DNA of 32,000 bases from Demequinaceae bacterium (GCA_965250005.1 OZ252279.1:1470001-1502000), one strand, 5' to 3'; shown: positions 3,379 to 27,100, counted from the stretch's first letter. Numbers and translations: made by a program. The notes: generated from the letters alone by a model not told the origin.

Positions 3379-3502
3379 GCTGTGACGGTACCGTTGTTGG
3401 CGAGAATTTGTCGTTCCAGTTGTGAGGCGTTCGGGGCTGGTGCAGGGATAGGTGACAACTGACTTCTGGGACCTGGGAGGGTCTTGGTGGAAGGATGTTG
3501 TT

Positions 3503-4674: not shown

Positions 4675-4750
4675 ACCCGAACTGTCACCAGTTCCTGCAC
4701 CAGCCCCTTCGCTGTAGCCGTAGTTTTGAATGCATGGTCGATACTCGAGC

Positions 4751-5266: not shown

Positions 5267-5380
5267 TTCTGCGCTAAATGTTGCGGGGTTTCTTGGGACC
5301 CGTTAGGTTGCAGATTACAGATCACTTTTTGAGGGAACTGGGTTGCCTGTGAGGGTTTGCTTGTTCGGAGCGGGGATATT

Positions 5381-7375
5381 GTGGCGATTTTGAGACGTAG
5401 CGTGCGTGTGTGCGCCATTTCGGCAGGTGCTGTTGCTGTGATGAGTTTGGGATTGTTGACTACTAGTGCGGTGGCTGCCGTGATGGTGGATGGTATGCCC
5501 GCTGATGCGGAAGCTGCGTCCTATGTTGGTTTGCCTGAGTTGACGGCGCCGTCGGCTTACGATGCGCAGGTTCTTGCGCGCGAGGTTGGTAAGGATGTTG
5601 AGGATTTGTCGCAGCGCACTAGCACGCAAGCTGTTGTGGCTTTGCCCGATGGGTCCTGGCGTACGCATGTGCATGGTGCTCCGCAGTGGGTGTTGACTAG
5701 CGGGGATGGTACGTCGGATGCGGATTGGAGTCCGCTTGATTCGACGTTGGTGGTTCGTGCTGATGGTTTCATTGTTCCGGTTGCGCACACGGAAGGTTTT
5801 GTGATTGCGCCTGGTGGTGAGCGAACTGATCTGATTCTTGAGACCACCGATTCTGAGTCTGGTGAAACGGTTTCTTTGCTCTGGGATGGTTCGTATTTGC
5901 CGCCCGCGCAGATTGACGGCGCGCGTGTGACGTATCCCGAGGTGAAGCCTGGCATTGACTATGTGATCGAGTTGTCACCGGTGGGTTATGAACAGTTTTA
6001 TGTGGCTAAGAATCGTGGAGCGCTCAGAGCTGCAGGTGACCTGTTTCTAGATTTTTCGGTCGACGGCGGCGAGATTACGTCTGATGGTGCTGGTGGTGCG
6101 ACGTTCCTTGATAGGAAGGGAAACACGATTGCGTTTGTGCCGGTTGCTGTGGCATGGGATGCCGAGACTGATGTCAGTCGCGGTAACCCTGTGTTGAAGC
6201 CTTGGCGCGGTGACCCGCGTAGGCCGTTTGGTGGTGACCGTGAGATGCCGGCAGGGCAGGGCAGTTGGCGTATCGGCTTTGATGCTGATGTTGAGTTTCA
6301 GGAAGAGGCAGTCGAGGTTGAGGTGGAGCCCCGCGAGGGTGGTGCACGGTTGAAACTCAATTTGCCTGCGGGCTGGGCGGATGACCCGTCGACTCGGTTC
6401 CCTGTGGTGATTGACCCTTACGTTGTCCTCTATCCAACATATGACACGTACTACCAGACCAACAGTTCGGTGAACCATCAGTCCTATTCGTATTTGCTGA
6501 TGGGGACGCCCAACAGCGGCAGCGTCAAGTACCGTACGTATCTGAATGTTACGACCACACCCATCCAAGGACTGACTGTCACTGCTGCGCATTTCAACAT
6601 TTGGAATTATCATTCGTGGTCGTGTTCTGCACGCAGTTGGCGTGCATATGCCGGCACCAATGTCACTAGTCAGGTGTCATGGCCCGGACCGGGGTATGAC
6701 GGTGGCGTGTATGGCGAGTCGTCTGCGACGTTGGGGTATTCGAGTTCGTGCAATGACGGCTGGGTTTCGACGGATATCACAGCGCCCGCACAAATGTGGT
6801 CAGAGGACTTGGCCGATTCGTATCATTCGTTGGCGCTCGTTGCTGGAAGCGAGACGAACAACTATTACTGGAAGCGGTTCTATTCGCTGTCGGCTAGCTC
6901 CCATCATCCGCATTTGGTTGTGTATTACAACCAGCCACCAGACGTGCCGTCTGGTGTGCTTGTGAATGGGTTCAGTTTGGATAGTTCTGCGTTGACGTTG
7001 ACGGATCCGTATCCGGTGTTGGAGGCGACGGTTTCGGATTTGGATGGTGGGATGGTGCGCGCGGTTTTCGATATTTATGATGGCGTGGATTTGCTTGGCA
7101 GTTTTGAGGGGTCGTTGGTTGCTTCGGGTGGGACGTCGATGATTGTGTTTGCGACACCATTGGATCCTGATGTGGCGTACACGGTTAAGGTGCGTGCTTC
7201 GGACACGTTGGATGAGTCGGCGGTTTTGACTGTTCCTAACACGTTGACGTATGTGGTTGCGGCCCCGGATTTGCCGTCTGCAGGGTTGGTTGATGTTCCT
7301 GCGTATTGCGATGACGATATTGGTGCGGTTGTAGCGCCTAGCCCGGCACCGTGCACGGGGGCTCCCGGTGTTTAG
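5381..7375 (+). CDS. Secreted protein with a DNRLRE-like domain plus Ig-like module; upstream partner of the Rhs toxin
   Basis: GTG at 5381 follows GGAGCGGGGA (the ORF track opens at 5357). N terminus resembles a signal peptide (AILRRSVRVCAISAGAVAVMSLGLLTTSAVAA). The central region (VIDPYVV..YRTYLNVTTTPIQGLTVTAAHFNIW..WVSTDITAPAQMW..YHSLALVAGSE..WKRFYS..PHLVVYY) matches my memory of the DNRLRE domain often annotated next to actinobacterial rhs genes. Same strand as the rhs gene, 64 bp upstream of it. Confidence 0.65.
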   Translation: MAILRRSVRVCAISAGAVAVMSLGLLTTSAVAAVMVDGMPADAEAASYVGLPELTAPSAYDAQVLAREVGKDVEDLSQRTSTQAVVALPDGSWRTHVHGAPQWVLTSGDGTSDADWSPLDSTLVVRADGFIVPVAHTEGFVIAPGGERTDLILETTDSESGETVSLLWDGSYLPPAQIDGARVTYPEVKPGIDYVIELSPVGYEQFYVAKNRGALRAAGDLFLDFSVDGGEITSDGAGGATFLDRKGNTIAFVPVAVAWDAETDVSRGNPVLKPWRGDPRRPFGGDREMPAGQGSWRIGFDADVEFQEEAVEVEVEPREGGARLKLNLPAGWADDPSTRFPVVIDPYVVLYPTYDTYYQTNSSVNHQSYSYLLMGTPNSGSVKYRTYLNVTTTPIQGLTVTAAHFNIWNYHSWSCSARSWRAYAGTNVTSQVSWPGPGYDGGVYGESSATLGYSSSCNDGWVSTDITAPAQMWSEDLADSYHSLALVAGSETNNYYWKRFYSLSASSHHPHLVVYYNQPPDVPSGVLVNGFSLDSSALTLTDPYPVLEATVSDLDGGMVRAVFDIYDGVDLLGSFEGSLVASGGTSMIVFATPLDPDVAYTVKVRASDTLDESAVLTVPNTLTYVVAAPDLPSAGLVDVPAYCDDDIGAVVAPSPAPCTGAPGV

Positions 7376-7439
7376 GCGGGCAAGCGGTTCGGGTGCGGTT
7401 GGAGAGGTGTTTGAGGGCAGTGCGATCAGAGGGTTGAAC

Positions 7440-10400
7440 ATGGGGCGGGTTCGTTTAGGTTTGGTGGCTGTGTTTGTTGCCGCCGCGCTTGTGGTGTCGG
7501 GTACGCCTGCATGGACGGTTGACCTGTCACCGAGCCCGGATTCGACTGCGACTCCGAGTGTCGAGCCAAGCCCGGAACCGAGTGCAACACCAAACCCAGA
7601 ACCGAGCCCAGAACCGAGTCCGGAACCGAGCCCAGAACCGAGTGTGGAGCCGAGTGCGTCGGTGAACGATTTTGTGTGGTCTGATCCTGATCCGGTTGAT
7701 TCGGTTGAGGGTAATCCTGGTGGGGTGCCTCGCGATGTGGGGTTGGGTCGGTTGCCGTCGTTTGGGGCGGAGCAAAGTTCTGGTGTTGAGCATCGTGTGT
7801 TCGATTTTGATGTGATGTCGGGCACAGATTTTGAGGTTGCTGTCGCTGAGGGTACGTCTGGTGTGGATGGCAGTGTTGTTGTTGCTGTGGGGGCGGTGCC
7901 GTTGGATGATGTGATTCGGCGTGTGTATGGGTCTTCAGGTTTGTATTTTCCTGGCGAGCTGCGTGGCCGCCCCGATTTGGTGGCCGCCAGTAGGCCATCA
8001 GCTGATGTTGGTGAGCATGTCATCGTGGAACAGCGTCCAGGTGCTGACGCATCTATTCCGGGTGCGGCTTTTACGTTGTCGGTGGATGTGGGTGGCCTCA
8101 ATGAGGATGCTCGATGGGTTGATGTTGCTGTAAATATGTCGCTGGTGGAGCATCTGTTTGGTGCAAACTATGTTGACCGGCTGCAGTTTGTGTTGCTACC
8201 TGAGTGTGCGTTGACGTCACGAAAGAATCGTGACTGTTTTGCTGGTTTGCCGTTGGAGTCGTCGCGTAATGGTTTGACGGGTGTGACCACGATTGCGGCG
8301 CCAGCGAATGCGCGCACCCTTGCAGATGTTGATGGCTTCAACTCGCGTCCTGTCAGTGTAGATGTGATTCATAGTGGCGATTTGGCGGCCGAGTTTGCTG
8401 CCTCACAGGGGTTGAAGTTTGCGGGCACTGGTGGCGGCACGATCATTGTTGCCGTGTCGGGTGCTTCTGGACAGGCAGGCGATTTTTCTGCTACCGACCT
8501 TGCCGCGCAGGGTACGTGGGGTGTGTCTGAACAGTCTGGCGCGTTCACCTATTCGCTGCCTATAGAGGTTCCACCCGCGCAGGCCGGTGCCGCCCCGAAT
8601 GTTTCGTTGTCGTATTCCAGTGCCGGTGCGGACGCTAAAACAGAGTCCACGAACGGGCAGACATCAGTTTTGGGTGAAGGGTGGGCAAACCCGACGAACT
8701 TTATTGAGAGGCTCTATTTGCCGTGTAACGCCGACGAATATGGCACCAACCTTTTGGACAAGTGTTGGCATTCGCCGTATACGAGTGTGCCTGGTGAGGC
8801 GGCCTATACGGTGTCCCTAAATGGGGCAACATATGACCTGATTTGGGATGGCGGCAACCGTTACCGCACCTCTACAGAAATCGGATGGCGGGTGACACGT
8901 CACTGGGGTGCCAACAACGGCGACGGCGGTGAAGCCGACTCAGACGATGAAGGCGAATATTTTTTGGTCCAGGTTCCTGACGGTTCGCGCTACTACTTCG
9001 GTTACGGACATGTCGGTGTCAGCGGCTCGCCAACCAACTCGGTTGCGACCGTACCTGTTTTTGGTGACGATACAGGTGAACCGCGTTGTGGTACTGACGC
9101 CAACGACGAATGTGTGCAGGGATATCGGTGGATGCTGGACATTTCGGTGGACGCCTCAAACAACGCCAGCACCTATACCTATACGCGTGACACCAATCAT
9201 TATGCGCTCAAGGGTGACGTCAACCGGATCACCGAATATACGGCCGCAATCCGTTTGGACGACATCAAATACGGTCTGGTGTGGGGCGGACTTGATGTAG
9301 GGGTTGGTACGCAGCAGGCGGACGCGAAGGTCCAATATGTTTACGTCGAACGCTGTGTTCAAGCGGCAAACTATTTGGGCACCCTTGCAACAACGCCAGC
9401 CGTGAACTGCCCAGATATGGATGAAGACAACGCCCACTTCTATCCCGATGTTCCTATCGATTTGTTGTGTGATGCAGCCACGGGTTCGAACCCTTGTGCA
9501 GCCACCCACAATTCGCCAGTGTTTTTTACTACCGAGCGGCTAGACCAGATCACTACATCGGTACGTGACTGGGCAGACGTTGACACGAACTCCGACTGGG
9601 TTCCGGTTGCGACCACTCAACTGTTGGCTGGCTATCCGATGACGGGGGATGGTTCTGCCCGAAACTTGTGGCTTGATGGCGTTTACACCAAAGCGTGGGG
9701 CGAGTTCGGCAACGTTGACGACGATTTGCAAACGTATGTCATCAAGTTTGATCCCATCCAACTCAACAACCGTGTGGACTTCATTCCTGGTGACGATGAC
9801 CGTCGCGCCGTGGACCGTCTACGTATTGAACGCGTACGCACCGAATTCGGTGGCCACATCGAAGTCGAATATGCCCGCGATATTGATGGTGTTGGCGACG
9901 CAGATCCAGACGACCCGTACGGGCTGACAGTCTGTGAAGCCGATGGATTCGTCAACGAAGCAGCGATCGACACGTACTACGACACCGTTTTCGCGAACGG
10001 TTGGGACGAAAACAGCCAACTGTGCTCCCCGTCCTCGAACGCAGACGACGCACCCACATTCCACAAATATATGGTCACCGAAGTACGCCTCGTCGATGCG
10101 GTGGCGCCCGTACCTGTTGATGCAGACGAAGACGGCGACTTTGAGGAAGCAACATCGAGCGACTTTTTTGACTACCTGACCACCGTTAACCGATACGACT
10201 ACATCGGTGAGCCTGCCTGGGCTTACGCCGATTCGATCATGTCGGAGCGCGGCCAGGGTGGACAAACATGGAACGTGTTCCGTGGCTACGAAATTGTTGA
10301 ATCCTGGGTAGGTGAGAACCTCACCGACTATGCGGTCACCCGCAACCAGTATTATCGCGGAACATCTGGGGGATACCTCGAAAATGGCACGCTCGCGTCA

Positions 10401-13400
10401 ACAGTCGAACTGACACGTATCAGTGACGGCACAACAGTTGAAGACCTTGCAGACCTGTCTGGCATGCTTGCCGCAACTTCGACGGTGCGCCGCGAAGTTG
10501 ATGGCCAAACGGTCACCGATACGCTCGCAACAGCCTCACACAGTGACTACACAATTGAGCGGGCTGTCGCACTCGATGTGCGTGAAGTAGACCTCAATCT
10601 TGGGGTCGGTGCAGAACTGATCGAAGTTGGTGACGCAAACAACGACGGCAACGCGGACCTACTTGCCTGGCTTGCCGACAAGTCGTTGGTTCTGTATTAC
10701 GGTGACGGCAACGGTGGCGTGACCGACGTTGACGGCACCGTTGTGTCTGCCGCATGGAGCACAACGGCAGACAAAATTATTGCACCCGGATCGTGGGATT
10801 CAACCGTCGACGATTATGTAGACCTCATCGAAGTCAAAGACGGATATTTGCGACTACATCGCGGTGCTGGCGATGGCACATGGGCGTCAACGAGCACCCA
10901 GATCGGTAGCGGTTGGGGCAGCTTCTTGGACATTTTGGTGCCAGGTGACTGGAGTGGCGACAGCAAACCTGACATCCTGCCCATTCAAACGGACAGCGAC
11001 CTTCGGTTGTATACCGGCAACGGCACCGCCACATCCCCCACAACAGTCGGCGTCATTGCCCAAATAGTTGATGAAGACTACATGCGTTTTGGCGACTTCG
11101 ACGGCGACGGCAAAACTGATGCCGCACACCACTACGACACCGACTGGCATGCATCATATTCTGGGACCGGCGACTGGATATTCCTTGGTGGCTCGCAATA
11201 TGGGGCCGATCAGGTCCGTTTCGATGGCGACTTCGACGGCAACGGCACAACCGATATGGCAATGCACACGTCGAGCGGGTGGCGTGTGCAATGGGACTCC
11301 AACAGTTCCTGGGAATACATCAACGACAGCACCATTACCGCAAATCTGTGGTTCGTGGATGTTGGCGTCAAAACTGCAGGCGACCCCACCGGTGTGGATG
11401 ACATCGTTTGGTTTACCGGAAGCAAATTTTCTGTGCGTTGGTCTGGCCAAGGAAACTGGGTAGACCTCAACACGTCCACATTGGGTTCCGACAAATCCTT
11501 TGCCGACATTGACGGCGACGGTGAAGCCGACATGATCAAACAAAACACGCTCGGCTGGCTAGTGTGGTGGTCCGGTAAAGGCCCCTACGAATACATCAAC
11601 ACTGACCTGAGTGCTGGCGACAATGTTATGTTCGGCGACTTTGATGGTGATGGCAGCGACGATTTGGTGCGCCGACGCAACGGCAACTGGGAATACAACT
11701 CTGCTTTGTTAGCTGACAGTGCCGCCGAATGGACCCACCTCATAGCCGAAGGTGGCACCAGCGGTGAAGGTGGTGTCTACGACTACGACGACTTCCATTA
11801 CGACGTTTGGGATTTTGATGGCAACGGCACATCAGATCTTGTCCGCTCCGGTGACGGCGGCTGGATGGTCCTATACGACGGCACAGGCAACTGGCAACAA
11901 ATCGCAGCCTCCCAATGGGCCCAATACGACACTTTTGTTGACGGCGGCGACTACAACGGTGACAGCATTGCAGACATTATTGCCATCTCCGCCATCGGCA
12001 ACGTCGATGTTCTCTACGGTGAAGGCGACAACGGTCCACCCGCCAACGCCCAAAAAACTGTCATAACCAACATTGGCGACGCCCAACAACTCGTCGCACC
12101 CGGAGACTGGAACGGCGACAACGTACCCGACCTACTCCTACTTGAAGCCGACGGAACACTCATGCTTCACGGCGGCACCCCCCACACCACCAGCGGTGAC
12201 GGCTCCTACTACAGCCAAACCATCCACTCCGAAACGTCATGGTCGATGGTCACCGAACCAGGACTTACCGTGCCGTGGGTGAAAACCTCAACCTCGACCA
12301 CCGCGTTTGACGGCCAAAACCTGCCCATCACATCCGAATCAACCGTGATCGAAACAGTCGACGGCATCCAAACAGCAGGCTCACCGTTCACATCCTGCAC
12401 GGCCATGGAACATTTGTGGCGTGTTGACGACGACGCCGCTACGGGAGATACCAACATCGGATGGGATGCTGTAGACGGCTGGGGTGGAGACATCTACCTG
12501 TCAGCAACATGGCGCACCCGCACACATGAAGGCGCCTGTGACGACTCGCAGAAGATCCTGACCGGTGTTTCAGAAACCTATTTTGATGGCGCCACCTGGG
12601 ATGACAACGAACCCCAAGACCTGTTAACACGAGGTTTAGTAACAACAGAAATTGCGTACCCCATCTATGAAGGCGCCACCGCTGCCGCCAAACGTGGCAA
12701 CGCCGCAATCTCCGTCGCAGAATATGATGCCCGCGGCCGTATCGCGAAAGCATGGATGCCCAACGACGTCTCCTTGAACGCCACCACCGGAGCACTAGAA
12801 ACCAACAACAGCTTCACCACATGGACATACGGTGCGTTCGCCACGTCGGGTGACCACGCAGGCTTGGCGGAATTGACGGTAGGCACCACCGTTGAGTGGG
12901 CTGAAGGTGTGCCGACAACGTATTCGACGTCGCAATGGGTGGAGCCCACGCGCGGTAGTGGGGTGAAGTCCATTGACCTCAACGAGCACTACACGCATTA
13001 CCGATTCGACCCGTTCGGCCTGCTTGAGGCGGGTTACGCGTCCACGACGTGGGATGGCGCCACGGCTCCGTGGTTGGAGTCCAGTTATGTGATTCCGACG
13101 GCGTCGTTTGAGTACGACGTGTACGCCCCTGGTGTGGGCGTGCGTTCCACACCCGTGACAGTCACCTCTGCCCAGCATGCAGGCTACGACGCGGCCGCCA
13201 ATGCCGGTGCAGGCCAATGGGTCTGCCAAGAAGCCGCCTGCTTTGTCAACCGTTCCCACATGTTCCTCGATGGATGGGGGCGTGCCGTCGAACAGCACCG
13301 TGTTGCACCAGACGGATCCGGTGGACGGCTAGTCTCCGCGACCAGGTACAACAAACTCGGGCACATCGAGTTTGTTGCCTCAACGTTCTGGAACGAAGAC

Positions 13401-16400
13401 GCCGCACAACTATCAAACGGAAAAGTCGACCCCGTCCTAGGTCAACTAGACCAGTTTGCGACCACAACGGTGGATTGGGCTGGCAGGGCCACCACACAAT
13501 CGACATGGTACCGAGACCCAACACTAGGCTTGTTGGAAACAAAAACAGAAACAACACGTATCGGCAATGTCACCGAAGTCACGGCAGCCTCCGGGGCCGT
13601 TACGGAAACCACCAACGACATTTTGGGTCGGCTCACAAAGCAGGTGCAGTTCGCTGAGGGCGGTGCAGATCCATTTACTACCGGATACGCGTACGAGACG
13701 TTGCCCGATGGCGGCAGCAAAGTCACAGTCACGGACCCAGACAATAATGACACCGTGTTTGAGTCGAACCTGAGTGGTCAACGCACAACCATGACGGATC
13801 CGAACTCAGGCCTGTCGACCTACACGTACGACCTGAACGGGCAAACCACATCGGTGGACTCTGAGGCTGGGTTGATCACGATGGTCTATGACGCACTCGG
13901 TCGCATGACAGATCGCACCACACTTGAGCCGGACGACACCACCGTGTCTTCGTCTGCGGCATGGGAGTTCGAAAACGAACTCGACGTTGCCGCCCCCACG
14001 GGTGCACTGAAATCGTCCACAGTTACCACGGTCATTGATGCCACGACCACTTTTGTGACGGTGCAAGCCACCGACACGTGGGACACGTTGGGGCGGCCCA
14101 CATCCACCACAACACATCTTCCGCAAGACACGGCTTCTACCGGTCCGGCATATGTGACGGACGCCTCCAGTTTGGGTGAACTTGCTGGAATCAATTACAC
14201 GCGCACCGTCGCCTATGACGAGTTGTCTCGTCCCACGGTGACATTGCCTGCCATTGCAGGCCTGCCGAAACAAACCGTTTTGACTCGGTTTAACCGGTTC
14301 GGAACACCAGTGACATTGGATGTGCTGGACAACCCCGGTGCGTCTCAAACGGTGACACCGATTGTGACGGGTATCGAGCTGGATGAGTTGGGTCGGTTGA
14401 CGTCGCGGTCCTATGCAAACACCGTGGACAGGTTGATTCAGTACGACGCCCAGTGGGGTGCACCGGAACGTATCGCCGCAGTGTTTGATCCCGGTACAGG
14501 TGACATCGCAATCCAAGATGACGTGTTTACACGGGACGATGTGGGCCGTGTGACGTCCATTCAAGACGATTCAACATATGAATCGGCAAGCCCACATGAA
14601 GCCCAGTGTTTCGTCTATGACGATCACAACCGGCTCGAAAATGCGTGGACTGAAGCTACAGATGATTTCACGGGCACGTGTGACGCTTTCCCGACGTTGC
14701 CGACCACTCAGACTGAGTGGGATGCGAGTGCATGGGCTGCGTCTGCTGGACCGTACGCAACCACCTGGGAGTATTCAGATTCGGGTCGGATTGAGTCCAT
14801 CACGAACCTCATCGAGGATGGCCTGGCGGGTTCCACAGAATCGGTGCAAGCCTTCGTGTACGACACAGATCCGGCTGATGCTGAACTGGGGCCCCTGGAC
14901 TTGCCGCATGCGGTCTCCGGTGTCGACAACGATGGCGACAGCACTGTCGATGACACATTCGAATACGACACCGCTGGACGTCAAACGGTTCGCACCGTCG
15001 ATGGGGTTACCTCCACGTTGACGTGGGATGTGTCATCCAACCTCGTCAAAGCCGTCGTCGATGACGGCACCAATGAGGCCACCTGGGTGTATGTGTATGA
15101 CGCATCCGGGCAGCGCGTCACAAAGATTCAGCTCGATGGATCGACCCCGATAGATGCGACCGCATATTTCGGTGAAACTGAAGTCACCGACACTGACACC
15201 AGCACTGATGGTGCATCAGACGTGACCGCGGTGCGGTATTACCAGTTTGGTGTCGCCGCCGTCGCACTCGAGCAGTCTGTTGAACACCCCACCACCCCCA
15301 CCGTTGAGTTGTTCTATTTGTTTGGTGACTTCCAAGGTTCAGCTCAGGTGATGATGTCTGATGCTAGAGACGTCAATGGTGACGCCGACCCAGCAAACGC
15401 GATGATTCTACGCAACGCCTACACCCCCTATGGGGCACAACGTTCGATAGATGTTGACGTAGACACCAACCCCGACCCAAACCTGCCTACCGAACGTGGC
15501 TGGCTATCCCAAGTTACCGACGAAGCCACCGACACGGCAGGCACGTTAGGCACCGGGCTGACCTATTTGAACGCCCGCTACTACGACCCGGTAACAGCAC
15601 GCTTCCTCACCCCAGACCCACTCATGAACCTTGCAGACCCGCGCACGTTGGACCCATACATGTATGCGGCGGACAACCCGGTCCTCTTCCAGGACGCTTC
15701 AGGCCTGTGTTACGAGTTTGCGGGATCGGAGAGGGCCGCATGCGAAGTGGCGAAGACGGCCGCGATTCGACCCGACCTTGGCGGCACCGATGGAGGCAGT
15801 TCAACGCAGCCTCCGGAAGATCTGGAGTCCGCCTGTTTCACGAACTCTTGGTTCGAAGAATGCAGACACGATACTTCTTCGGACGAATTCTACGAGGGAA
15901 TCGGATTCGGCGAGGGAGCATCAATTGCCGGGTGGGGTGCAGCCAACTTCTTTGTCGGTATCGCGAACGGGCTATTGTTTCCCATCAACGCCGGAAAATG
16001 TGGTTGGGACGCCCGAAGCCTAAACGTCGTCGACGCATATATCATCTGTGGACTGGGAGCCTCCTCCAACAACTCGTACTTCCCAGATGGCTGGTACTTC
16101 AACTCTGTAGGAGGCAACCCCGCCCTCTACGACCCATCGATGCACGTCGGGACAGATTTCGTCTACAACGCACCGCTACTTTTCATAGGTGGTGGAGTCG
16201 CCGCGGGGGGAAGAGGATTGGCGGCCACTGCAAGTGGGTCGCGTGGGGCTGCAGTTGCCGCACCTCGGGTCACATTCGGCCACGGGGCTCGGCACTTGGA
16301 AGGGACAGGACTGTCTGTCGCGGAAGTTGAATCCGCGATCCTGCCTCGGGTCTCCGCAGCGGTGACGGAGTCCACGACTGGGACCGCGGGCGGCTCGTTC

Positions 16401-16496
16401 TGGGGTCGTGTCGTAGTCGATGGAACTACAATTGAATACCGTGCGTATCCACTCGCTGACGGCACGATCAACGTTGGGACCTACTATGTGCCTTGA
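7440..16496 (+). CDS. Rhs/YD-repeat polymorphic toxin, TcB/TcC-like fused architecture with Sec-type signal peptide
   Basis: ATG at 7440 gives MGRVRLGLVAVFVAAALVVSGTPAWT (the ORF track opens at 7368). Then, in order: a PEPS linker; an SpvB/TcB-N-like motif FTYSLPIEVPPAQAGAAPNVSLSYSS..GEGW; FG-GAP DxDxDG blades; many YD repeats (YDARGRI, YTYDLNGQ, YDALGRM, YDELSRP, YDTAGRQ, YDASGQR); the Rhs core YLNARYYDPVTARFLTPDP..DPYMYAADNPVLFQDASGL; and an unrelated 262-aa tail. Confidence 0.95.
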   Translation: MGRVRLGLVAVFVAAALVVSGTPAWTVDLSPSPDSTATPSVEPSPEPSATPNPEPSPEPSPEPSPEPSVEPSASVNDFVWSDPDPVDSVEGNPGGVPRDVGLGRLPSFGAEQSSGVEHRVFDFDVMSGTDFEVAVAEGTSGVDGSVVVAVGAVPLDDVIRRVYGSSGLYFPGELRGRPDLVAASRPSADVGEHVIVEQRPGADASIPGAAFTLSVDVGGLNEDARWVDVAVNMSLVEHLFGANYVDRLQFVLLPECALTSRKNRDCFAGLPLESSRNGLTGVTTIAAPANARTLADVDGFNSRPVSVDVIHSGDLAAEFAASQGLKFAGTGGGTIIVAVSGASGQAGDFSATDLAAQGTWGVSEQSGAFTYSLPIEVPPAQAGAAPNVSLSYSSAGADAKTESTNGQTSVLGEGWANPTNFIERLYLPCNADEYGTNLLDKCWHSPYTSVPGEAAYTVSLNGATYDLIWDGGNRYRTSTEIGWRVTRHWGANNGDGGEADSDDEGEYFLVQVPDGSRYYFGYGHVGVSGSPTNSVATVPVFGDDTGEPRCGTDANDECVQGYRWMLDISVDASNNASTYTYTRDTNHYALKGDVNRITEYTAAIRLDDIKYGLVWGGLDVGVGTQQADAKVQYVYVERCVQAANYLGTLATTPAVNCPDMDEDNAHFYPDVPIDLLCDAATGSNPCAATHNSPVFFTTERLDQITTSVRDWADVDTNSDWVPVATTQLLAGYPMTGDGSARNLWLDGVYTKAWGEFGNVDDDLQTYVIKFDPIQLNNRVDFIPGDDDRRAVDRLRIERVRTEFGGHIEVEYARDIDGVGDADPDDPYGLTVCEADGFVNEAAIDTYYDTVFANGWDENSQLCSPSSNADDAPTFHKYMVTEVRLVDAVAPVPVDADEDGDFEEATSSDFFDYLTTVNRYDYIGEPAWAYADSIMSERGQGGQTWNVFRGYEIVESWVGENLTDYAVTRNQYYRGTSGGYLENGTLASTVELTRISDGTTVEDLADLSGMLAATSTVRREVDGQTVTDTLATASHSDYTIERAVALDVREVDLNLGVGAELIEVGDANNDGNADLLAWLADKSLVLYYGDGNGGVTDVDGTVVSAAWSTTADKIIAPGSWDSTVDDYVDLIEVKDGYLRLHRGAGDGTWASTSTQIGSGWGSFLDILVPGDWSGDSKPDILPIQTDSDLRLYTGNGTATSPTTVGVIAQIVDEDYMRFGDFDGDGKTDAAHHYDTDWHASYSGTGDWIFLGGSQYGADQVRFDGDFDGNGTTDMAMHTSSGWRVQWDSNSSWEYINDSTITANLWFVDVGVKTAGDPTGVDDIVWFTGSKFSVRWSGQGNWVDLNTSTLGSDKSFADIDGDGEADMIKQNTLGWLVWWSGKGPYEYINTDLSAGDNVMFGDFDGDGSDDLVRRRNGNWEYNSALLADSAAEWTHLIAEGGTSGEGGVYDYDDFHYDVWDFDGNGTSDLVRSGDGGWMVLYDGTGNWQQIAASQWAQYDTFVDGGDYNGDSIADIIAISAIGNVDVLYGEGDNGPPANAQKTVITNIGDAQQLVAPGDWNGDNVPDLLLLEADGTLMLHGGTPHTTSGDGSYYSQTIHSETSWSMVTEPGLTVPWVKTSTSTTAFDGQNLPITSESTVIETVDGIQTAGSPFTSCTAMEHLWRVDDDAATGDTNIGWDAVDGWGGDIYLSATWRTRTHEGACDDSQKILTGVSETYFDGATWDDNEPQDLLTRGLVTTEIAYPIYEGATAAAKRGNAAISVAEYDARGRIAKAWMPNDVSLNATTGALETNNSFTTWTYGAFATSGDHAGLAELTVGTTVEWAEGVPTTYSTSQWVEPTRGSGVKSIDLNEHYTHYRFDPFGLLEAGYASTTWDGATAPWLESSYVIPTASFEYDVYAPGVGVRSTPVTVTSAQHAGYDAAANAGAGQWVCQEAACFVNRSHMFLDGWGRAVEQHRVAPDGSGGRLVSATRYNKLGHIEFVASTFWNEDAAQLSNGKVDPVLGQLDQFATTTVDWAGRATTQSTWYRDPTLGLLETKTETTRIGNVTEVTAASGAVTETTNDILGRLTKQVQFAEGGADPFTTGYAYETLPDGGSKVTVTDPDNNDTVFESNLSGQRTTMTDPNSGLSTYTYDLNGQTTSVDSEAGLITMVYDALGRMTDRTTLEPDDTTVSSSAAWEFENELDVAAPTGALKSSTVTTVIDATTTFVTVQATDTWDTLGRPTSTTTHLPQDTASTGPAYVTDASSLGELAGINYTRTVAYDELSRPTVTLPAIAGLPKQTVLTRFNRFGTPVTLDVLDNPGASQTVTPIVTGIELDELGRLTSRSYANTVDRLIQYDAQWGAPERIAAVFDPGTGDIAIQDDVFTRDDVGRVTSIQDDSTYESASPHEAQCFVYDDHNRLENAWTEATDDFTGTCDAFPTLPTTQTEWDASAWAASAGPYATTWEYSDSGRIESITNLIEDGLAGSTESVQAFVYDTDPADAELGPLDLPHAVSGVDNDGDSTVDDTFEYDTAGRQTVRTVDGVTSTLTWDVSSNLVKAVVDDGTNEATWVYVYDASGQRVTKIQLDGSTPIDATAYFGETEVTDTDTSTDGASDVTAVRYYQFGVAAVALEQSVEHPTTPTVELFYLFGDFQGSAQVMMSDARDVNGDADPANAMILRNAYTPYGAQRSIDVDVDTNPDPNLPTERGWLSQVTDEATDTAGTLGTGLTYLNARYYDPVTARFLTPDPLMNLADPRTLDPYMYAADNPVLFQDASGLCYEFAGSERAACEVAKTAAIRPDLGGTDGGSSTQPPEDLESACFTNSWFEECRHDTSSDEFYEGIGFGEGASIAGWGAANFFVGIANGLLFPINAGKCGWDARSLNVVDAYIICGLGASSNNSYFPDGWYFNSVGGNPALYDPSMHVGTDFVYNAPLLFIGGGVAAGGRGLAATASGSRGAAVAAPRVTFGHGARHLEGTGLSVAEVESAILPRVSAAVTESTTGTAGGSFWGRVVVDGTTIEYRAYPLADGTINVGTYYVP
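7560..7655 (+). repeat. 12-bp periodic coding repeat (eight units, consensus CCR GAA CCG AGY) encoding a (S/T)PEP linker
   Basis: Read directly: gtcgagccaagc ccggaaccgagt gcaacaccaaac ccagaaccgagc ccagaaccgagt ccggaaccgagc ccagaaccgagt gtggagccgagt. Lies just after the signal peptide. Confidence 0.85.
10620..12180 (+). repeat. FG-GAP/VCBS-type beta-propeller repeat region inside the Rhs protein (about ten blades)
   Basis: Recurring calcium-loop-like motifs: VGDANNDGNADL, PGDWSGDSKPD, FGDFDGDGKTD, FDGDFDGNGTTD, FADIDGDGEADM, FGDFDGDGSDD, WDFDGNGTSD, GDYNGDSIADI, PGDWNGDNVPD. Trp-rich strands lie between them (GWRVQW, FSVRWSG, GWLVWWSG, GWMVLYDG). Confidence 0.7.
15708..16496 (+). other. C-terminal toxin tip of the main Rhs protein (begins right after the ..QDASGL core boundary)
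   Basis: Similarity to the orphan copies is high up to GL at 15702-15707 and is lost after it. The tail has a Cys/Gly-rich linker, and the final ~90 aa are RVTFGHGARHLEGTGLSVAEVESAI..GRVVVDGTTIEYRAYPLADGTINVGTYYVP. I cannot assign a family. Confidence 0.75.
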
Positions 16497-16854
16497 CCGC
16501 AACGCTGGAGGACTTCGTGCCCCGACGAACGACGAGCGAGAACTGATCGCCCGGCTACTCGCCGCCGACTTCGCGGGGGCTCCTGAACTTCGACTTCAAC
16601 TGAGCACAACTCTCGTAGACTCCATCGACGACGACGGGAGCCTCGGTCTCAACCCGGAAGGCGCATCGCTAGCTGAAGTAGATCATCGGATACCCGTCGA
16701 GGCGACTTACCCCGATGCGGACGGCATGACCGTTCATGTCTTGATCCACGTGATTGACGGGCTCCTCGATGAGCTTGAGGTTTACCGAGAGGACTCCCTC
16801 CCCGTGTTGAGACCCGCAGCCGGTGCTCTCGATCTGGCGGTGGACCCGCGGTAA
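16486..16854 (+). CDS. Candidate cognate immunity protein of the main Rhs tip
   Basis: The ATG at 16486 overlaps the rhs stop by 11 bp (the ORF track opens at 16420, inside rhs). 122 aa, acidic: ..NDERELIARLLAADFAGAPELRLQL..DDDGSLGL..VHVLIHVIDGLLDELEVYREDS. From memory it resembles small DUF6984-type proteins found after toxin genes. Unverified. Confidence 0.6.
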   Translation: MCLDRNAGGLRAPTNDERELIARLLAADFAGAPELRLQLSTTLVDSIDDDGSLGLNPEGASLAEVDHRIPVEATYPDADGMTVHVLIHVIDGLLDELEVYREDSLPVLRPAAGALDLAVDPR

Positions 16855-17504
16855 GAGTGACGGTGCTCCTGGTCGCGATCCCCGCACGGGTTCACGGTCT
16901 TTGAGTCGAACATTGCCGGGCAGCGTACCAAGTTGACGGACCCAAACTCAGGCCTGTCGACCTACACGTATGACTTGAACGGTCAGACTTTGTCTGTGGA
17001 TTCCGAGACGGGTCTCATCACGATGGCCTACGACGCACTCGGTCGCATGACAGATCGCACCACACTTGAGCCGGACGACACCACCGTGTCTTCGTCTGCG
17101 GCATGGGAATTCGAAAACGAACTCGACGTTGCCGCCCCCACGGGTGCACTGAAATCGTCCACAGCTACCACGGTCATTGATGCCACGACCACTTTTGTGA
17201 CTGTGCAAGCCACCGACACGTGGGACACGTTGGGGCGGCCCACAGCCACCACAACCCATCTTCCGCAAGACACGGTTTCTACAGATCCGGCATATGTGAC
17301 GGACGCGTCCAGTTTGGGTGAACTTGCTGGCACCGACTACACGCGCACCGTCACCTACGACGAGCTGTCTCGTCCCACGGTGACACTGCCTGCCATTGCA
17401 GGCCTGCCAGCACAAACCATTGTGAACGGTTACAACCGGTTCGGAACACCAGTGACTGAACCGCCCTGGGTTTTGTTCCGATCTCTATTTGAGAGGATCG
17501 GATC

Positions 17505-17822
17505 ATGCCAAAGAGATATCCAGAGGAGTTCAAGGCCCGCGCGGTCAGGCTCGTTGACGAAGCGGTCGGCGAGGCAGGTGCCAGCGAAACGGATGCCATG
17601 TCGAGGGTTGCTACCCGTTTGGGGGTGTCAACGGAGTCTGTTAGACGGTGGCGTCGCCAGGCTCGTGTTGATTCGGGCATCGAGCGGGGCGTGACGAGTG
17701 AGGAGTCGACGGAGATGCGGCGGCTACGTCGCGAGAACACTGAGTTGAGGCGTGCAAACGAAATATTGCGGACTGCGTCAGCGTTTTTTGCAGCGGAACT
17801 CGACCGCCCCACGACGAAATGA
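17505..17822 (+). CDS. IS3-family transposase OrfA
   Basis: MPKRYPEEFKARAVRLV..VSTESVRRWRRQ..EMRRLRRENTELRRANEILRTASAFFAAELD. Confidence 0.88.
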   Translation: MPKRYPEEFKARAVRLVDEAVGEAGASETDAMSRVATRLGVSTESVRRWRRQARVDSGIERGVTSEESTEMRRLRRENTELRRANEILRTASAFFAAELDRPTTK

Positions 17823-18730
17823 TTCGATACATCGATGAGTATCGGGATCAATTCGGGGTTGAGTTCATTTGTCGCACACTTGCTGCGACACCCGGTGGGT
17901 TCATTACCTCGCGCGGCTATCGGGCCGCGAAGTTTCGGCCTCGCTCCGACAGATCAATTCGGGACGAGCAGGTCGGTGAGGCCCTGACCCAAATTCATGC
18001 TGCTAACTATTCGGTTTACGGGGTGCGTAAAATGTATGCGGCGATGCGTAGGGCCGGCTGGGATGTGGGCCGCGACCAGGTGGCCCGCCTCATGCGCAAG
18101 AGCCATTTGCGTGGGGTTAGCCGTGGCAAGAGAGTCTTCACGACCGTTACGGACCCTGCCTCGATGCGACCAGCTGACTTAGTGGAGCGGCGCTTCACCG
18201 CTAGTGGTCCGCGTGAGCTTTGGGTCGCGGACATCACCTATGTGGCCACATGGAATGGCTTCGCCTACACCGCTTTCGTCACCGACGTCTTCAGTCGCAA
18301 AATCGTCGGCTGGGCAGTATCCAGTTCGTTAACTACCCAGTCGTTGCCGTTACAGGCACTCGAGATGGCTGCCTTCATCAACGACACTGGGGAAGGTCTC
18401 ATCCATCACAGCGATATGGGCACGCAATATGTGTCCCTGGCTTACTCCGACCGCCTCACCGACCTCGGCATCACCGCTTCTGTCGGATCCCGTGGAGACA
18501 GTTACGACAACGCCCTAGCCGAGTCCGTCAACGCCGCCTACAAAGCCGAACTGATTCGTGCTCGAAAGCCCTGGCGAACCATCGAGCAAGTCGAGTTCGC
18601 AACCCTGGAATGGGTCCACTGGTTCAACACCGCCCGACTCCACGAAAACCTCGGCCACCGAACCCCAGCAGAAATCGAAACCGAGCACTACGCTCAAACC
18701 CAGAGGGCATCAGCCCTCACAACCACCTAG
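17819..18730 (+). CDS. IS3-family transposase OrfB (DDE)
   Basis: 303 aa with DDE contexts WVADITYV, HHSDMGTQY and YDNALAESVN. Lies in the -1 frame relative to OrfA. Confidence 0.9.
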   Translation: MIRYIDEYRDQFGVEFICRTLAATPGGFITSRGYRAAKFRPRSDRSIRDEQVGEALTQIHAANYSVYGVRKMYAAMRRAGWDVGRDQVARLMRKSHLRGVSRGKRVFTTVTDPASMRPADLVERRFTASGPRELWVADITYVATWNGFAYTAFVTDVFSRKIVGWAVSSSLTTQSLPLQALEMAAFINDTGEGLIHHSDMGTQYVSLAYSDRLTDLGITASVGSRGDSYDNALAESVNAAYKAELIRARKPWRTIEQVEFATLEWVHWFNTARLHENLGHRTPAEIETEHYAQTQRASALTTT

Positions 18731-20988
18731 GAACGAAACCCAGGGCGGTTCAGACATTGGACGTGTTGAATAACCCAGGTGCGTCGCAAACGGTGACACC
18801 TATTGTGACCGGTGTTGGTTTGGATGAGTTGGGTCGGTTGACGTCCCGGTCCTATGCAAACACCGTGGACAGGTTGATTCAGTACGACGCCCAGTGGGGT
18901 GCACCGGAACGTATCGCAGCAGTGTTTGATCCGGGTACAGGTGACATTGCCATCCAAGATGATGTGTTTACACGGGACGATGTTGGCCGCGTGACGTCGA
19001 TTCAAGACGATTCAACATATGAATCAGCGAACCCGCATGAGGCCCAATGTTTCGTTTATGACGGTCACAACCGGCTCGCAAATGCGTGGACTGAAGCTAC
19101 AGATGGATTCACGGGCACGTGTGACGCTTTCCCGACGTTGCCGACCACTCAGACTGAGTGGGATGCGAGTGCATGGGCTGCGTCTGCTGGACCGTACGCA
19201 ACCACCTGGGAGTATTCAGATTCGGGTCGGATTGAGTCCATCACGAACCTCATCGAGGATGGCTTGTCAGGTTCCACAGAATCGGTGCAAGCCTTCGAAT
19301 ATGACTCCGACGGTAATGGCACAGAATTGTCGGCAAACGATTTGCCGCATGCGGTTTCCGGTGTCGACAACGATGGCGACAGCACTGTCGATGACACGTT
19401 CGAATATGACACGGCTGGACGTCAAACGGTTCGCACTGTCGACGGGGTTACGTCCACGTTGACGTGGGATGTGTCATCCAACCTTGTCAAAGCCGTCGTC
19501 GATGACGGCACCAATGAAACCACCTGGGTGTATGTGTATGACGCATCCGGGCAGCGCGTCACAAAGATTCAACTCGATGGGTCAACTCCGGTAGATGCGA
19601 CTGCATATTTTGGTGAAACTGAAGTCACCGATACAGACACCAATAATGACGGTGCATCAGACGTGACTGCTGTCCGGTACTACGCATTTGGTGGTGCCAC
19701 GGTTGCGATCGAGCAGTCTGTTGAACACCCCACCAGCCCCACCGTGGACCTGTTCTACCTGTTTGGTGACTTCCAAGGCTCCGCACAGGTGATGATGTCT
19801 GATGCGAGAGACGTCAACGGTGACGCCGACCCAGCAAACGCAACAATCCTGCGCAACGCCTACACCCCCTATGGGGCACAGCGTTCGATAGATGTTGACG
19901 TCGACACCAACCCCGACCCAAACTTGCCTACCGAACGTGGCTGGCTATCCCAAGTCAGGGACGAAGCCACCGACACGGCAGGCACGTTAGGCACAGGGCT
20001 GACATATTTGAACGCCCGCTACTACGACCCGGTAACAGCACGCTTCCTATCCCCAGACCCACTCATGAACCCCCAGGACCCGCGCACGTTGGATCCGTAC
20101 ATGTATGCGGCCAACAACCCGATCCTCTTCCAGGACGCTACAGGCTTGTGCTACGGGCTGATAGGTCAGGCAATGGCAACATGCCAACAAGACAAAACGG
20201 CCGCATGGACGACGTTCACCAAAGCACAAGTGCCGACCACACCAAAGTACAAGGACCTTCCGGAGTCGGTGCAACAGAGCATGTGTGCCAGCGGTGAGGT
20301 TACCGGACACGCATGCAACGCTGACGTCACCAAGGATGATTTTGACCAGTCGATCGGATTCACCGAGGGTCTAGGAATCGTCGGAAACGGGTTCACGAAC
20401 CTTGGGGCAGGAGTTGTTGATGGAGTGACGGGCACCCTGGACCTTGCGGTAGATGTTGTCGCAAACCTTGGTCGACCGTGGTGCACTGGCGACGTTCTCG
20501 GTATTACGAGCGGGACCTGGGGGTGCGTTGATGTAACGGACATAGCCAAAATAGGGGTGGTCGGAGACCCGGACGTATACGGGCTCGTTCACGCATACGG
20601 CACCGTTTTGGGTTCGACGGCAACTCTTGCTGGCGGCGGCGCCGCGATTGGCGCGGGCAGGGCTGGTAGCGCGACCATCGCTACGGAAGTAAATCTTCCG
20701 CGATCCCTCACGCCCTTCTGGCGGACTTCCCCAACTACGTCGGCCGCTTTGCGCGCAAATCCAATTATTGGCGAGGCGGGTAAGTTTGCGCCATTTGCGC
20801 GCGGAGGGTGGCTCAACAACAACAACTATCTGCGAACGGGTTGGAGTTGGATGGGGACCAATGCCTCTGGCACTAACGTTTTTCGTACGGCGATTGGAAA
20901 CAACTCGATAGGGAAAATCCACCTGAATTGGTTCACGTAGACACCTGGGCATCAGATACTGTGATTGCCGACCACGAAAGGGCACCGG

Positions 20989-21405
20989 ATGGGCGCAAAA
21001 AGCCAATACTTCGATCTCACAATCGACGAGATATCTCGCCATTTTGAGGTGCGCGAGCTTGAGCCAAGCCCGGATGGGCCGCTGCGTGCAGTGTCTGTGC
21101 GCAATGCTGGCGATGGCGGAAGGACGTGCGAGGTCAACACGCCGGACGGATACGAAGCGCATGTTTATGCCGAGGGACTCCATTTTGACGATACGTTGCG
21201 AGGCGCAGCGTCAACACATGTCGTCCGTCTTGTGCGCGGGTACATGGAGAATGGCGCGACCGAGAGCACTCGCCGCCGCTGGTTTGGTGTCGTTCGCGTC
21301 GTCAGCGTGGATACGCCGGGTGGGGCAACCTACAACCTCGAGGAGTGGGGCCCCTTTTCTCGCGTCCGCGTGACCGATGCCCGGCGGCCGAGCGAGGGCG
21401 ATTGA
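20989..21405 (+). CDS. Candidate immunity protein for the O1 tip
   Basis: The ATG at 20989 follows AAAGGG (the ORF track opens at a TTG at 20965). 138 aa, 48 bp after the O1 stop, same strand. No recognisable family (MGAKSQYFDLTIDEISRHFEVRELEPSPDG..). Confidence 0.5.
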   Translation: MGAKSQYFDLTIDEISRHFEVRELEPSPDGPLRAVSVRNAGDGGRTCEVNTPDGYEAHVYAEGLHFDDTLRGAASTHVVRLVRGYMENGATESTRRRWFGVVRVVSVDTPGGATYNLEEWGPFSRVRVTDARRPSEGD

Positions 21406-21547
21406 GCCCGCGGACCCTTCTGCTGGACTATTCGACCAACGGATCAGTGGATCCGGTGCAATAATTCAAGTACGACTTTGACGGCGACATTTTCGGAATT
21501 GCGGCCACCGGAGAAGTGTATCGCCCCGGGTTTGGTGGAGGCTTTCA

Positions 21548-22803: not shown

Positions 22804-22821
22804 CAAACCCGGGGCGATACA

Positions 22822-23886: not shown

Positions 23887-23958
23887 GACGGTGCGGGCTC
23901 GTGCGCGGCTACGAATCAAGCGGTGGGCGCTTGCGATTTCGTGACTGACGCAAACGTC

Positions 23959-26059: not shown

Positions 26060-26406
26060 GAAGCGAACTTCGAGCCTTCGAGTTCTCGCTTTCGGAAAGC
26101 GAGGTACGCGAACTCGAGGGCAGTGATCGCGTGTACGCGCCCGCGCGAATATACGTGGGTCAGCATGGTGGTGTAGGTGAGGAATCCTTCGACTTCATCG
26201 TTTGTACACCCCTAGGGCTAGCTCAACAGCTTGAAGCTGAGGACGTAGTGGATGGTCGTCACCACTTCGTTGTGGCGCGCTTTGAAGAGAACATGTTCGT
26301 CGAATGGATCCGAACGAAGGTCGCAGGCTGCGAAGGTCCGGACTGGAGTGCGGTCGCCCTCAAGCTCTCGCGTTTAGGAATGTGGGAGTATGAGGACTAC
26401 CATTAG
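26056..26406 (+). CDS. Candidate immunity protein for the O3 tip, Imm8-like
   Basis: 116 aa. Its start overlaps the O3 stop (ATGA at 26056-26059). ..ESFDFIVCTPLGLAQQL..GRHHFVVARFEENMFVEWI..LSRLGMWEYEDY matches my memory of the Imm8 polymorphic-toxin immunity family. Needs HMM confirmation. Confidence 0.6.
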   Translation: MRSELRAFEFSLSESEVRELEGSDRVYAPARIYVGQHGGVGEESFDFIVCTPLGLAQQLEAEDVVDGRHHFVVARFEENMFVEWIRTKVAGCEGPDWSAVALKLSRLGMWEYEDYH

Positions 26407-26454: not shown

Positions 26455-27082
26455 CGACCCTGGTGTGGGCGTGCGGTCCACACCCGTGACAGTCACCTCC
26501 GCCCAACATGCAGGCTACGACGCGGCCGCCAATGCCGGTGCCGGCGACTGGGCATGCCAAGAAGCTGCATGCTTCGTCAACCGTTCCCACATGTTCCTCG
26601 ATGGATGGGGGCGTGCCGTCGAACAGCACCGTGTTGCACCAGACGGATCCGGTGGACGGCTAGTCTCAGCAACCCGCTACAACAAACTCGGGCACATCGA
26701 CTTTTCTGCCTCAACATTCTGGAACGAAGACGCCGCACAGCTGTCGAACGGAAAAGTCGACCCCGTTCTGGGTCAACTAGACCGGTATGCCACGGCAACC
26801 CTGGATTGGGCTGGCAGGGCTACCACCCAGTCGGCGTGGTTCCGCGACCCAACGCTGGGCTTGTTGGAAACAAAAACTGAAACAACACGTATCGGCAATG
26901 TCACCGAGGTCACGGCAGCCTCCGGGGCCGTTACGGAAACCACCAACGACATTTTGGGTCGGCTCACAAAGCAGGTGCAGTTCGCTGAGGGCGGTGCAGA
27001 TCCATTTACTACCGGATACGCGTACGAGACGTTGCCCGATGGCGGCAGCAAGGTGACAGTCACGGACCCGGACAATAATGAC
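26455..27082 (+). pseudogene. Orphan rhs fragment O4 (internal core piece), truncated by IS copy B
   Basis: GVGVRSTPVTVTSAQHAGYDAAANAGAGDWACQEAACFVNRSHMFLDGWGRAVEQHRVAPDG..GGSKVTVTDPDNND is colinear with main-gene ~13124-13751. It ends exactly at the IS end. Confidence 0.88.
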
Positions 27083-27100
27083 TGTATCGCCCCGGGTTTG

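Follow-up and report, generated by a model that had tools for sequence, protein, structure and literature searches.

A standing question is how Rhs toxins leave a Gram-positive producer and enter a Gram-positive target; the translocation step of these toxins has been called "enigmatic" (PMC12704120). The locus considered here bears directly on this question. It lies in a stretch of 32,000 nucleotides from a Demequinaceae bacterium (GCA_965250005.1 OZ252279.1:1470001-1502000; hereafter the window) and is built around two genes, one encoding a DNRLRE-like secreted protein (the partner) and, directly downstream, one encoding a very large Rhs protein (rhs), which the original prediction had read as a fused TcB/TcC-like cocoon toxin without the TcA translocator on which Tc (ABC) toxins rely. 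The reading that we favour, and hold to be rather probable, is that of a two-polypeptide, Sec-exported Rhs toxin directed against neighbouring bacteria, with the lectin-like partner serving in surface or receptor binding. The original prediction is supported, since none of the observations that it had named as speaking against it was made, but to speak of a "BC cocoon missing its TcA" makes the system sound more exotic than it seems to be.

An open reading frame (ORF) scan of the window gave open frames on the + strand at 5357-7375 and 7368-16496. Within these, the partner gene starts at GTG 5381 with GGAG in front, and the rhs gene at ATG 7440 with GAGGG in front, so that the co-oriented genes are separated by a gap of 64 bp (7376-7439). 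Hydropathy analysis revealed a single strongly hydrophobic segment in each protein, in both cases N-terminal (aa 7-37 of the partner, aa 1-27 of the Rhs protein). These N-termini fit export signals, in agreement with the signal-peptide-like N-termini proposed before, and a Tat route may be possible for the partner too, given the RR in its N-terminus. The sequence motifs quoted in the original prediction (FTYSLPIEVPPAQAGAAPNVSLSYSS..GEGW, YLNARYYDPVTARFLTPDP and DPYMYAADNPVLFQDASGL, followed by a 262-aa tail) are all found in the translation. A scan for promoters and terminators gave no signal above chance. The strand composition of the interval 5001-9000 is strongly biased. At 7001-8000, where the partner gene ends and rhs begins, the GC skew reaches 0.30 and the AT skew -0.33; the bias is weaker deeper into rhs.

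The N-terminal third of the Rhs protein is shown by structural modelling to have a predicted TcB fold. When the AlphaFold2 (AF2) model of aa 145-1000 (pLDDT 74.4; shallow alignment of 25 sequences) was compared with the PDB by Foldseek, the best 13 matches were all TcB proteins (YenB, TcdB2-TccC3 and TcdB1; E-values of 1e-14 to 7e-12, probability 1.00), followed by the SpvB N-domain and then by the mosquito YD protein SGS1, with far weaker matches (E ~1e-5) to the Rhs cores of type VI secretion system (T6SS) effectors. The global template modelling (TM) scores of these matches are low (~0.27), as expected because the modelled region is part of an open shell, and the list of matches is specific. 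The Pfam SpvB model scored under its cut-off on the whole Rhs protein (5.7e-4) and above it on the fragment aa 145-1000 (3.5e-5, 23.6 bits; cut-off 22), and eight out of nine homologues matched it. For the TcdB_toxin_midN and midC models, no match was obtained in the window Rhs protein at E-values up to 1, while a close homologue (L084) matched TcdB_toxin_midN with 34.4 bits (cut-off 24.8), the only homologue doing so. Sequence searches of the PDB found little, i.e., low-complexity or chance matches in a phmmer search with the whole Rhs protein and YenB at E ~0.07 only with a 9-sequence profile, and the TcB relationship therefore rests on the fold search and the weak SpvB matches. The SpvB/TcB assignment of the original prediction is thus borne out; of the hidden Markov model (HMM) searches that it proposed, those for SpvB (on the fragment), FG-GAP, TIGR03696 and DNRLRE gave matches and those for TcdB_toxin_midN/midC did not.

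Downstream of this region, the Rhs protein matches FG-GAP_3 (1.6e-14) and contains nine DxDxDG-like motifs between aa 1065 and 1556, which makes the "about ten" FG-GAP blades counted earlier a fair description. Among the matches listed, PF13517/PF01839 occurs in P0011, P0012, P0017 and P0021 only, and FG-GAP is also present in the L084 and L085 Rhs homologues; on this distribution the propeller is an apparent insertion found in the closest relatives plus L084 and L085. The idea that FG-GAP repeats had "migrated" between partner and Rhs protein in L085 and L086 was rejected, because the L085 Rhs protein carries FG-GAP too. The YD repeats and the Rhs core were both recognized above cut-off (YD_repeat_2x, 28 bits, cut-off 15.8; Rhs_assc_core TIGR03696, 1.8e-11, 44.3 bits, cut-off 32.5, aa 2705-2756), as had been proposed, and the core retains both aspartates of the self-cleavage motif. 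The core ends in ..YYDPVTARF..FQDASGL and the tail begins with CY; the main gene shares this junction, DA[ST]GL followed by CY, with two orphan rhs cassettes further downstream (see below). Homologues at 35-59% identity reach E-values down to 0, so that the assignments are not a matter of chance, and a profile of aa 145-1000 retrieved at least 148 actinobacterial Rhs proteins of 2000-2400 aa. The N-terminal type of the window Rhs protein is, judged by these homologues, common.

The partner matches the NCBIfam model DNRLRE_dom (NF033679; 3.1e-15, 56.6 bits, cut-off 34) over aa 355-514, which upholds its earlier assignment as DNRLRE-like. Its AF2 model (pLDDT 71.5; shallow alignment of 11 sequences) is all beta. 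A signal peptide (aa 1-~34) and an N-terminal beta-sandwich (aa ~50-260) are followed, past a disordered linker (aa 263-307), by a jelly roll of the DNRLRE/CBM96-like type (aa 355-514) and an Ig-like domain (aa ~520-625), and the protein ends in a tail with cysteines. A Foldseek search with this model returned non-catalytic sugar-binding and Ig domains of GH2 enzymes as well as the chondroitin-sulfate carbohydrate-binding module (CBM) 8wab (TMt 0.67); phmmer against PDB sequences gave low-complexity or chance matches only. The modelling thus shows the partner as a predicted secreted protein made up solely of beta-sandwich, carbohydrate-binding-like and Ig-like domains. Homologues of the partner were found at 35-42% identity, and Pfam CBM96 is matched by homologous partners. 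Among 29 partners encoded by a gene of their own ("split" partners), 22 contain Laminin_G_3, and CBM96, F5/8 type C (discoidin), ricin-B, FG-GAP and the clostridial receptor-binding-like Toxin_R_bind_N also occur in this set. The low-confidence C-terminal tail of the window partner (7250-7372) has two Cys in the motif [IV]P..CD.D....C, which is also found in the close partners of L085 and L087, with LamG domains in its place in the Streptomyces and Micromonospora-type partners; this motif may be a docking or disulfide-loop element.

Does the partner belong with the Rhs protein? This was approached by a scan for partner relatives with a 5-sequence alignment and one genome per species, which gave 157 relatives, of which the best 80 loci, all actinobacterial, were kept; the synteny counts rest on stop-to-stop ORFs and on a partner-family HMM built in this analysis. 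In 74 of these 80 loci (the best 80 of 157), a partner-like module of ~550 aa forms the N-terminus of an ORF of 1700-2800 aa with at least three YD repeats, and sampled fused ORFs contained RHS_repeat, DUF6531 and PT-HINT as well as Big_13, LamG, ricin-B and nuclease tails. Because of this fusion to Rhs, the module is counted as Rosetta-stone evidence. Elsewhere, the partner is a separate gene. Micromonospora echinofusca (L045) has a 1475-aa lectin-rich partner-like gene, the stop of which overlaps the start of an SpvB-type rhs gene, the three closest standalone partner homologues (L084, L085 and L086) are each located directly upstream of an SpvB-type rhs homologue, and a partner-like gene also lies upstream of rhs in L082, L087 and Streptomyces anulatus (L089/L090). 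In total, the partner is upstream in seven out of nine informative loci found via individual homologues. Of 80 metagenomic loci retrieved with the profile of Rhs aa 145-1000, 25 carried too little upstream sequence to be informative; among the remaining 55, a partner-like ORF with the same orientation immediately precedes rhs in 41 and a divergently oriented one is present in four. The synteny with rhs in relatives on which the original prediction depended is thereby found. The pairing is thus shown to be conserved, the module being often fused to Rhs elsewhere, and the pair has dozens of carriers among Streptomyces, Micromonospora, Demequina-like bacteria and uncultured soil actinobacteria. 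The partner is not a new kind of protein: in ordinary actinobacterial Rhs toxins it forms the N-terminal module, from which it differs here in being a product of its own gene.

Some of the same data weigh against the reading that we favour. Ten of the 55 informative metagenomic loci have no partner even though at least 4 kb of upstream sequence is available. Demequina soli (L088), with a barnase/barstar tail, and L083, which is truncated by an insertion sequence (IS), also have no upstream partner, and this Rhs type can therefore exist without an adjacent one. In addition, Pfam, including CBM96, gave zero matches for the window partner itself, and glycan binding by this protein is predicted from fold and family alone. 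Finally, three standalone partner-like genes (L018, L027 and L049) have no rhs gene nearby, as might be expected if partner and rhs were neighbours without a joint function and the partner were an ordinary secreted polysaccharide-binding protein. CBM96/DNRLRE domains are indeed known in polysaccharide lyases and many surface proteins. However, the adjacency of partner and rhs persists at 22-41% protein identity across genera, stop and start codons overlap in L045, L085 and L087 (4-bp overlaps occur in relatives, compared with the 64-bp gap in the window), the module is fused to Rhs in the large majority of loci, and catalytic domains are absent from all of the 29 split partners examined. A chance neighbourhood of this kind would seem scarcely credible.

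Two further observations were made on the related loci. A divergent layout of partner and SpvB-type rhs genes is seen in the metagenomic loci L107, L113, L124 and L159. L081 (ERZ25039549 contig_37426) and L087, which come from the same metagenome sample, contain two close relatives of the window rhs; that of L081 is broken into three ORFs and has an RNase_A_bac tail with a CdiI_2 immunity gene, followed by two orphan core-plus-tail copies.

The target of the toxin is indicated by what follows the Rhs core (see the table for coordinates). The tail of the main gene (CT1), the tails of the two orphan rhs cassettes (CT2 and CT3) and a 146-aa ORF 3' of CT2 received no Pfam, NCBIfam or PDB assignment. 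However enigmatic in family terms, the last ~80 aa of CT1 show a conserved pattern, FGHGxRHL..VE..I..FWG..YRA..G.IN.GTYY, which recurs at the extreme C-terminus of 516 representative proteins, with RHS repeats in six out of ten sampled. Because of the conserved HGxRH...E...YR pattern and the helix-plus-strands layout of this end module, our guess is that it might be a small RNase. The DUF6984 protein encoded by the next gene, which overlaps the rhs stop codon, is likely a candidate immunity protein for CT1. The original prediction, which ended at 16854, was right about the gene pair and left the small DUF6984 ORF, with its stop at that position, undescribed; it also overlooked the array of orphan rhs tails and immunity genes which, like the DUF6984 gene, is present 3' of rhs.

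This array consists of rhs fragments that are 88-94% identical to the 3' part of the main rhs gene. In the first orphan cassette, 16894-17457 corresponds to Rhs aa 2105-2292 (89%) and 18754-20148 to aa 2292-2756 (92%), an IS3 insertion with IS3 transposase domains separates the two (~17458-18753), and CT2 follows at 20149-20940. A recognizable immunity gene (Imm8) follows the second orphan cassette only. Between the two orphan cassettes, identity amounts to 93% over 1.77 kb (18894-20660 versus 23959-25725), up to ~510 bp into their tails, beyond which they diverge; CT2 and CT3 may be recent recombinants with a common pre-toxin region. A pre-toxin region rich in Cys and Gly is common to CT1, CT2 and CT3. 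The starts of the tails (15708-16000, 20149-20560 and 25214-25630) have the pattern CY..(G)....C...IGF.EG, followed by Gly-rich, mildly hydrophobic stretches with weak, chance-level matches to ATP synthase c and TrbL, and this segment may be a membrane-interacting entry region. In its predicted gene content, the downstream array is a classic orphan toxin/immunity array of Rhs loci. Because of the immunity-type gene and the orphan rhs-CT/immunity cassettes, the locus is classified from its annotation as an interbacterial polymorphic-toxin locus and not as an insecticidal or anti-eukaryotic Tc locus.

This also bears on the possibility that the Rhs protein is a genuine BC subunit of a Tc (ABC) toxin acting on eukaryotes, with TcA elsewhere in the genome and an incidental upstream gene. 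The similarities with the TcB-TcC cocoon (YenB/YenC2, 4igl; TcdB2-TccC3, 4o9x and 6h6e) are considerable: TcB is the best structural match, both have an SpvB-like start of the shell, a propeller before the RHS shell, an Rhs core bearing the aspartyl motif for self-cleavage and a variable tail enclosed in the cocoon, and the B and C parts reside on one chain in the window Rhs protein as they do in the matched TcdB2-TccC3 chains. Furthermore, BC and C genes are also known as orphans at a distance from tcA (PMC7861908). However, the window differs in its actinobacterial host, in its immunity gene and orphan cassettes, in the unmatched midN/midC models and in a larger propeller (~nine blades), which is located ~640 aa past the SpvB motif. 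A Sec signal peptide is present on the Rhs protein, whereas the Tc toxin of Y. entomophaga is set free by lysis that depends on a type 10 secretion system (PMC10847048). Families of the TcA, T6SS and type VII secretion system (T7SS) types were detected neither in the 32-kb window nor in the gene tables of nine related loci, as the original prediction had noted for the window; a list of the ORFs of at least 1000 aa in the related loci carried no information on TcA, since high-GC DNA yields long shadow ORFs. In a survey, 96.4% of TcC proteins came from Proteobacteria and 3.2% from Firmicutes (PMC7861908). With the synteny and fusion of the partner conserved as well, we consider a Tc toxin with a distant TcA highly improbable.

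The architecture of the Rhs protein in itself has a precedent. A "TcdB/TcaC" class of polymorphic toxins, consisting of a signal peptide, SpvB, an integrin-like beta-propeller, RHS and a toxin and including actinobacterial members, was catalogued in 2012 (Zhang, de Souza, Anantharaman, Iyer and Aravind; PMC3482391, Table 1), and the window Rhs protein has exactly the architecture given there. The passages retrieved from that paper on this class do not mention a conserved upstream lectin-like partner. In the literature we found no experimentally studied member of the class, and our literature searches retrieved no description of a gene pair of a separate lectin-like partner and a TcB-like Rhs protein. 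The single-protein Rhs architecture is thus already known, and the conserved split partner appears to be undescribed.

A studied precedent for the partner is WapA-CT1 of S. suis, a Sec-dependent toxin. Its DNRLRE domain is part of a wall-binding fragment at the N-terminus, which autocleavage separates from the Rhs barrel; this fragment (NCWB) is described as a region that binds the cell wall and interacts with sortase B (PMC12704120). WapA-CT1 and the window have in common a Sec signal, DNRLRE, an Rhs barrel, a pre-toxin region with C-terminal toxin, an immunity gene and extra truncated Rhs-CT copies, and in both the DNRLRE-bearing part ends up as a separate polypeptide, by autocleavage in WapA-CT1 and by gene structure in the window. 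They differ in that WapA-CT1 has DNRLRE fused to Rhs, LysM repeats, DUF6531 and accompanying genes for a SecF-like protein and SrtB, whereas in the window DNRLRE is on its own gene, LysM, sortase and SecF-like genes are missing and the N-terminus of the Rhs protein is TcB-like. The Rhs protein has the signal peptide of WapA-type toxins, and LysM or another wall-binding family was matched in neither protein of the pair. This parallel feeds the main rival to our reading, namely that the partner is a producer-side helper that anchors the huge Rhs protein or guides it through the producer's own wall, as has been proposed for NCWB, and does not bind the target. The Pro/Glu/Ser-rich stalk right after the signal peptide of the Rhs protein, which is typical of wall-spanning segments, would agree with such a role. 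However, searches of Pfam and NCBIfam revealed no LysM, LPXTG or other known wall-anchoring motif in the window partner, and no sortase- or SecF-like family occurs in the window. Moreover, the lectin modules vary from partner to partner (LamG, discoidin, ricin-B) and look more like diversifying receptor-binding ends than like a housekeeping anchor. A purely producer-side role is thus rather unlikely in our view.

Two other groups of Rhs proteins can be compared with the pair. The fused DNRLRE-Rhs proteins of Streptomyces, Nonomuraea, Micromonospora, Cellulomonas and others carry the same ~550-aa module, at 28-35% identity to the partner, followed by RHS and variable toxins; the annotation of many genomes includes such fusions, and the one in S. 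suis has been studied. Unlike the window pair, they are single polypeptides in which DUF6531, Big_13, LamG, ricin-B and PT-HINT are variably present; a tblastn search of the SpvB/TcB-like region of the window against them gave no match at E 1e-5. The T6SS Rhs effectors (RhsA-VgrG1, Tse5) share with the window a cocoon, self-cleavage, orphan cassettes and a further protein by which the cocoon is linked to its route of delivery. However, the window has a monoderm host, Sec export and no PAAR, VgrG or Eag-type gene, and Pfam and NCBIfam searches of the Rhs protein, the partner and the neighbouring ORFs revealed no PAAR/VgrG-binding or WXG/LXG N-terminal domains.

According to the favoured reading, i.e., a Sec-exported toxin with a lectin-like partner, both proteins would be exported by Sec and are probably co-translated from one operon. 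Outside the membrane, the Rhs protein would fold into a closed cocoon around its tail, which would be cut between DASGL and CY. The partner would bind this cocoon non-covalently, with the N-domain (aa 145-360) or the propeller as candidate docking sites, and its lectin-type domains would tether the cocoon to glycopolymers of the cell wall, be it that of the target, for receptor recognition, that of the producer, for display, or both. The Gly-rich pre-toxin region may then aid entry of the ~80-aa terminal toxin module, possibly a small RNase, into the target, while the DUF6984 protein would guard the producer and recombination with the orphan cassettes would allow swapping of the toxin. A bolder proposal, which we put forward tentatively and consider unlikely, is that the partner is the functional counterpart of the TcA receptor-binding shell in a minimal TcA-less "AB" toxin of monoderms. 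It would dock at the propeller/gate end and recognize a glycopolymer on a target actinobacterium, binding would open the cocoon, and the Gly-rich pre-toxin segment, not a TcA channel, would carry the toxin across the target membrane. If this were true, exchange of the lectin modules of the partner (LamG, discoidin, ricin-B, FG-GAP) would determine the range of targets, whichever toxin had been swapped in at the opposite end.

Table. Positions in the window of the partner and rhs genes, their domains and the downstream rhs array, with the evidence for each.
Feature	Position	Strand	Evidence or remarks
Partner gene, 664 aa	5381..7375	+	DNRLRE_dom, AF2 model, Foldseek, homologues
DNRLRE/CBM96-type carbohydrate-binding-like domain, partner aa 355-514	6443..6922	+	NCBIfam DNRLRE_dom; CBM96 in homologous partners
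rhs gene, 3018 aa	7440..16496	+	Order: signal peptide, P/E/S-rich linker, N-domain, TcB/SpvB-like shell start, FG-GAP propeller, YD-repeat shell, Rhs core, C-terminal toxin
Signal peptide (aa 1-27) and Pro/Glu/Ser-rich low-complexity linker (aa 28-~75)	7440..7664	+	Hydropathy, sequence
Conserved N-terminal region, aa 145-1000, with SpvB-like motif and TcB-like fold	7872..10439	+	Profile, AF2, Foldseek, Pfam SpvB
FG-GAP/VCBS beta-propeller region, aa ~1040-1700, ~nine blades	10557..12539	+	FG-GAP_3, DxDxDG-like motifs
YD/RHS-repeat shell and Rhs-associated core (core aa 2705-2756), end ..FQDASGL	12687..15707	+	TIGR03696, YD_repeat_2x
CT1 tail, 262 aa: Gly-rich pre-toxin region and ~80-aa terminal toxin module	15708..16496	+	No Pfam/NCBIfam/PDB match; module recurrence
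Candidate immunity gene, 122 aa from ATG 16486, overlapping the rhs stop codon	16486..16854	+	Pfam DUF6984 1.2e-11 (aa 11-109), position after toxin
Orphan rhs cassette 1	16894..20940	+	tblastn/blastn self-comparison
146-aa ORF directly 3' of CT2	20965..21405	+	Possible immunity gene by position alone; no family match
Orphan rhs cassette 2	23906..26059	+	23906-25213 = Rhs aa 2319-2756 (88%); tail CT3 25214-26059
Imm8 immunity gene for CT3	26056..26406	+	Pfam Imm8 1.4e-21
rhs fragment = aa 1897-2106 (94%), ended by an IS3 copy	26459..27088	+	Self-comparison

The surroundings of the pair are rich in mobile elements. On the 5' side are located an IS, an HNH endonuclease, a C5 methylase and MTHFR. 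The gene for the C-5 cytosine DNA methylase (6e-70; 1297-2637, +) is convergent with an HNH_2 endonuclease ORF (2593-3378, -), and the two are likely a restriction-modification pair just 5' of an IS-flanked island. Two IS3-family copies of 1275 bp (HTH_Tnp_1 and rve ORFs; 3433-4707 and 28780-30054), 100% identical and in direct orientation, enclose the whole rhs locus of ~24 kb in the fashion of a composite transposon, and the G+C content of the enclosed region is 0.55-0.58 versus 0.60-0.64 in the flanks. The rhs array is heavily IS-ridden: further IS3-family elements are present at 21516-22821 (+) and 27083-28388 (-), as inverted copies with 98% identity, and the right end carries another transposase ORF (30121-30960). 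A 373-aa ORF (22469-23590) with no family match and no similarity to the main rhs gene overlaps the stretch of ~1.1 kb (22822-23905) that separates an IS3 copy from orphan cassette 2.

For the biology of Rhs toxins, the locus indicates that the cocoon can be encoded by one gene and the front end for surface or receptor binding by another. It thereby offers a clean genetic system: the partner can be changed without touching the toxin, which makes export, wall transit, target recognition and cargo release separable. It also links Tc-toxin-like cocoons to a route that is independent of TcA. This may be of use in engineered protein delivery and may contribute to the understanding of competition among antibiotic-producing soil bacteria.

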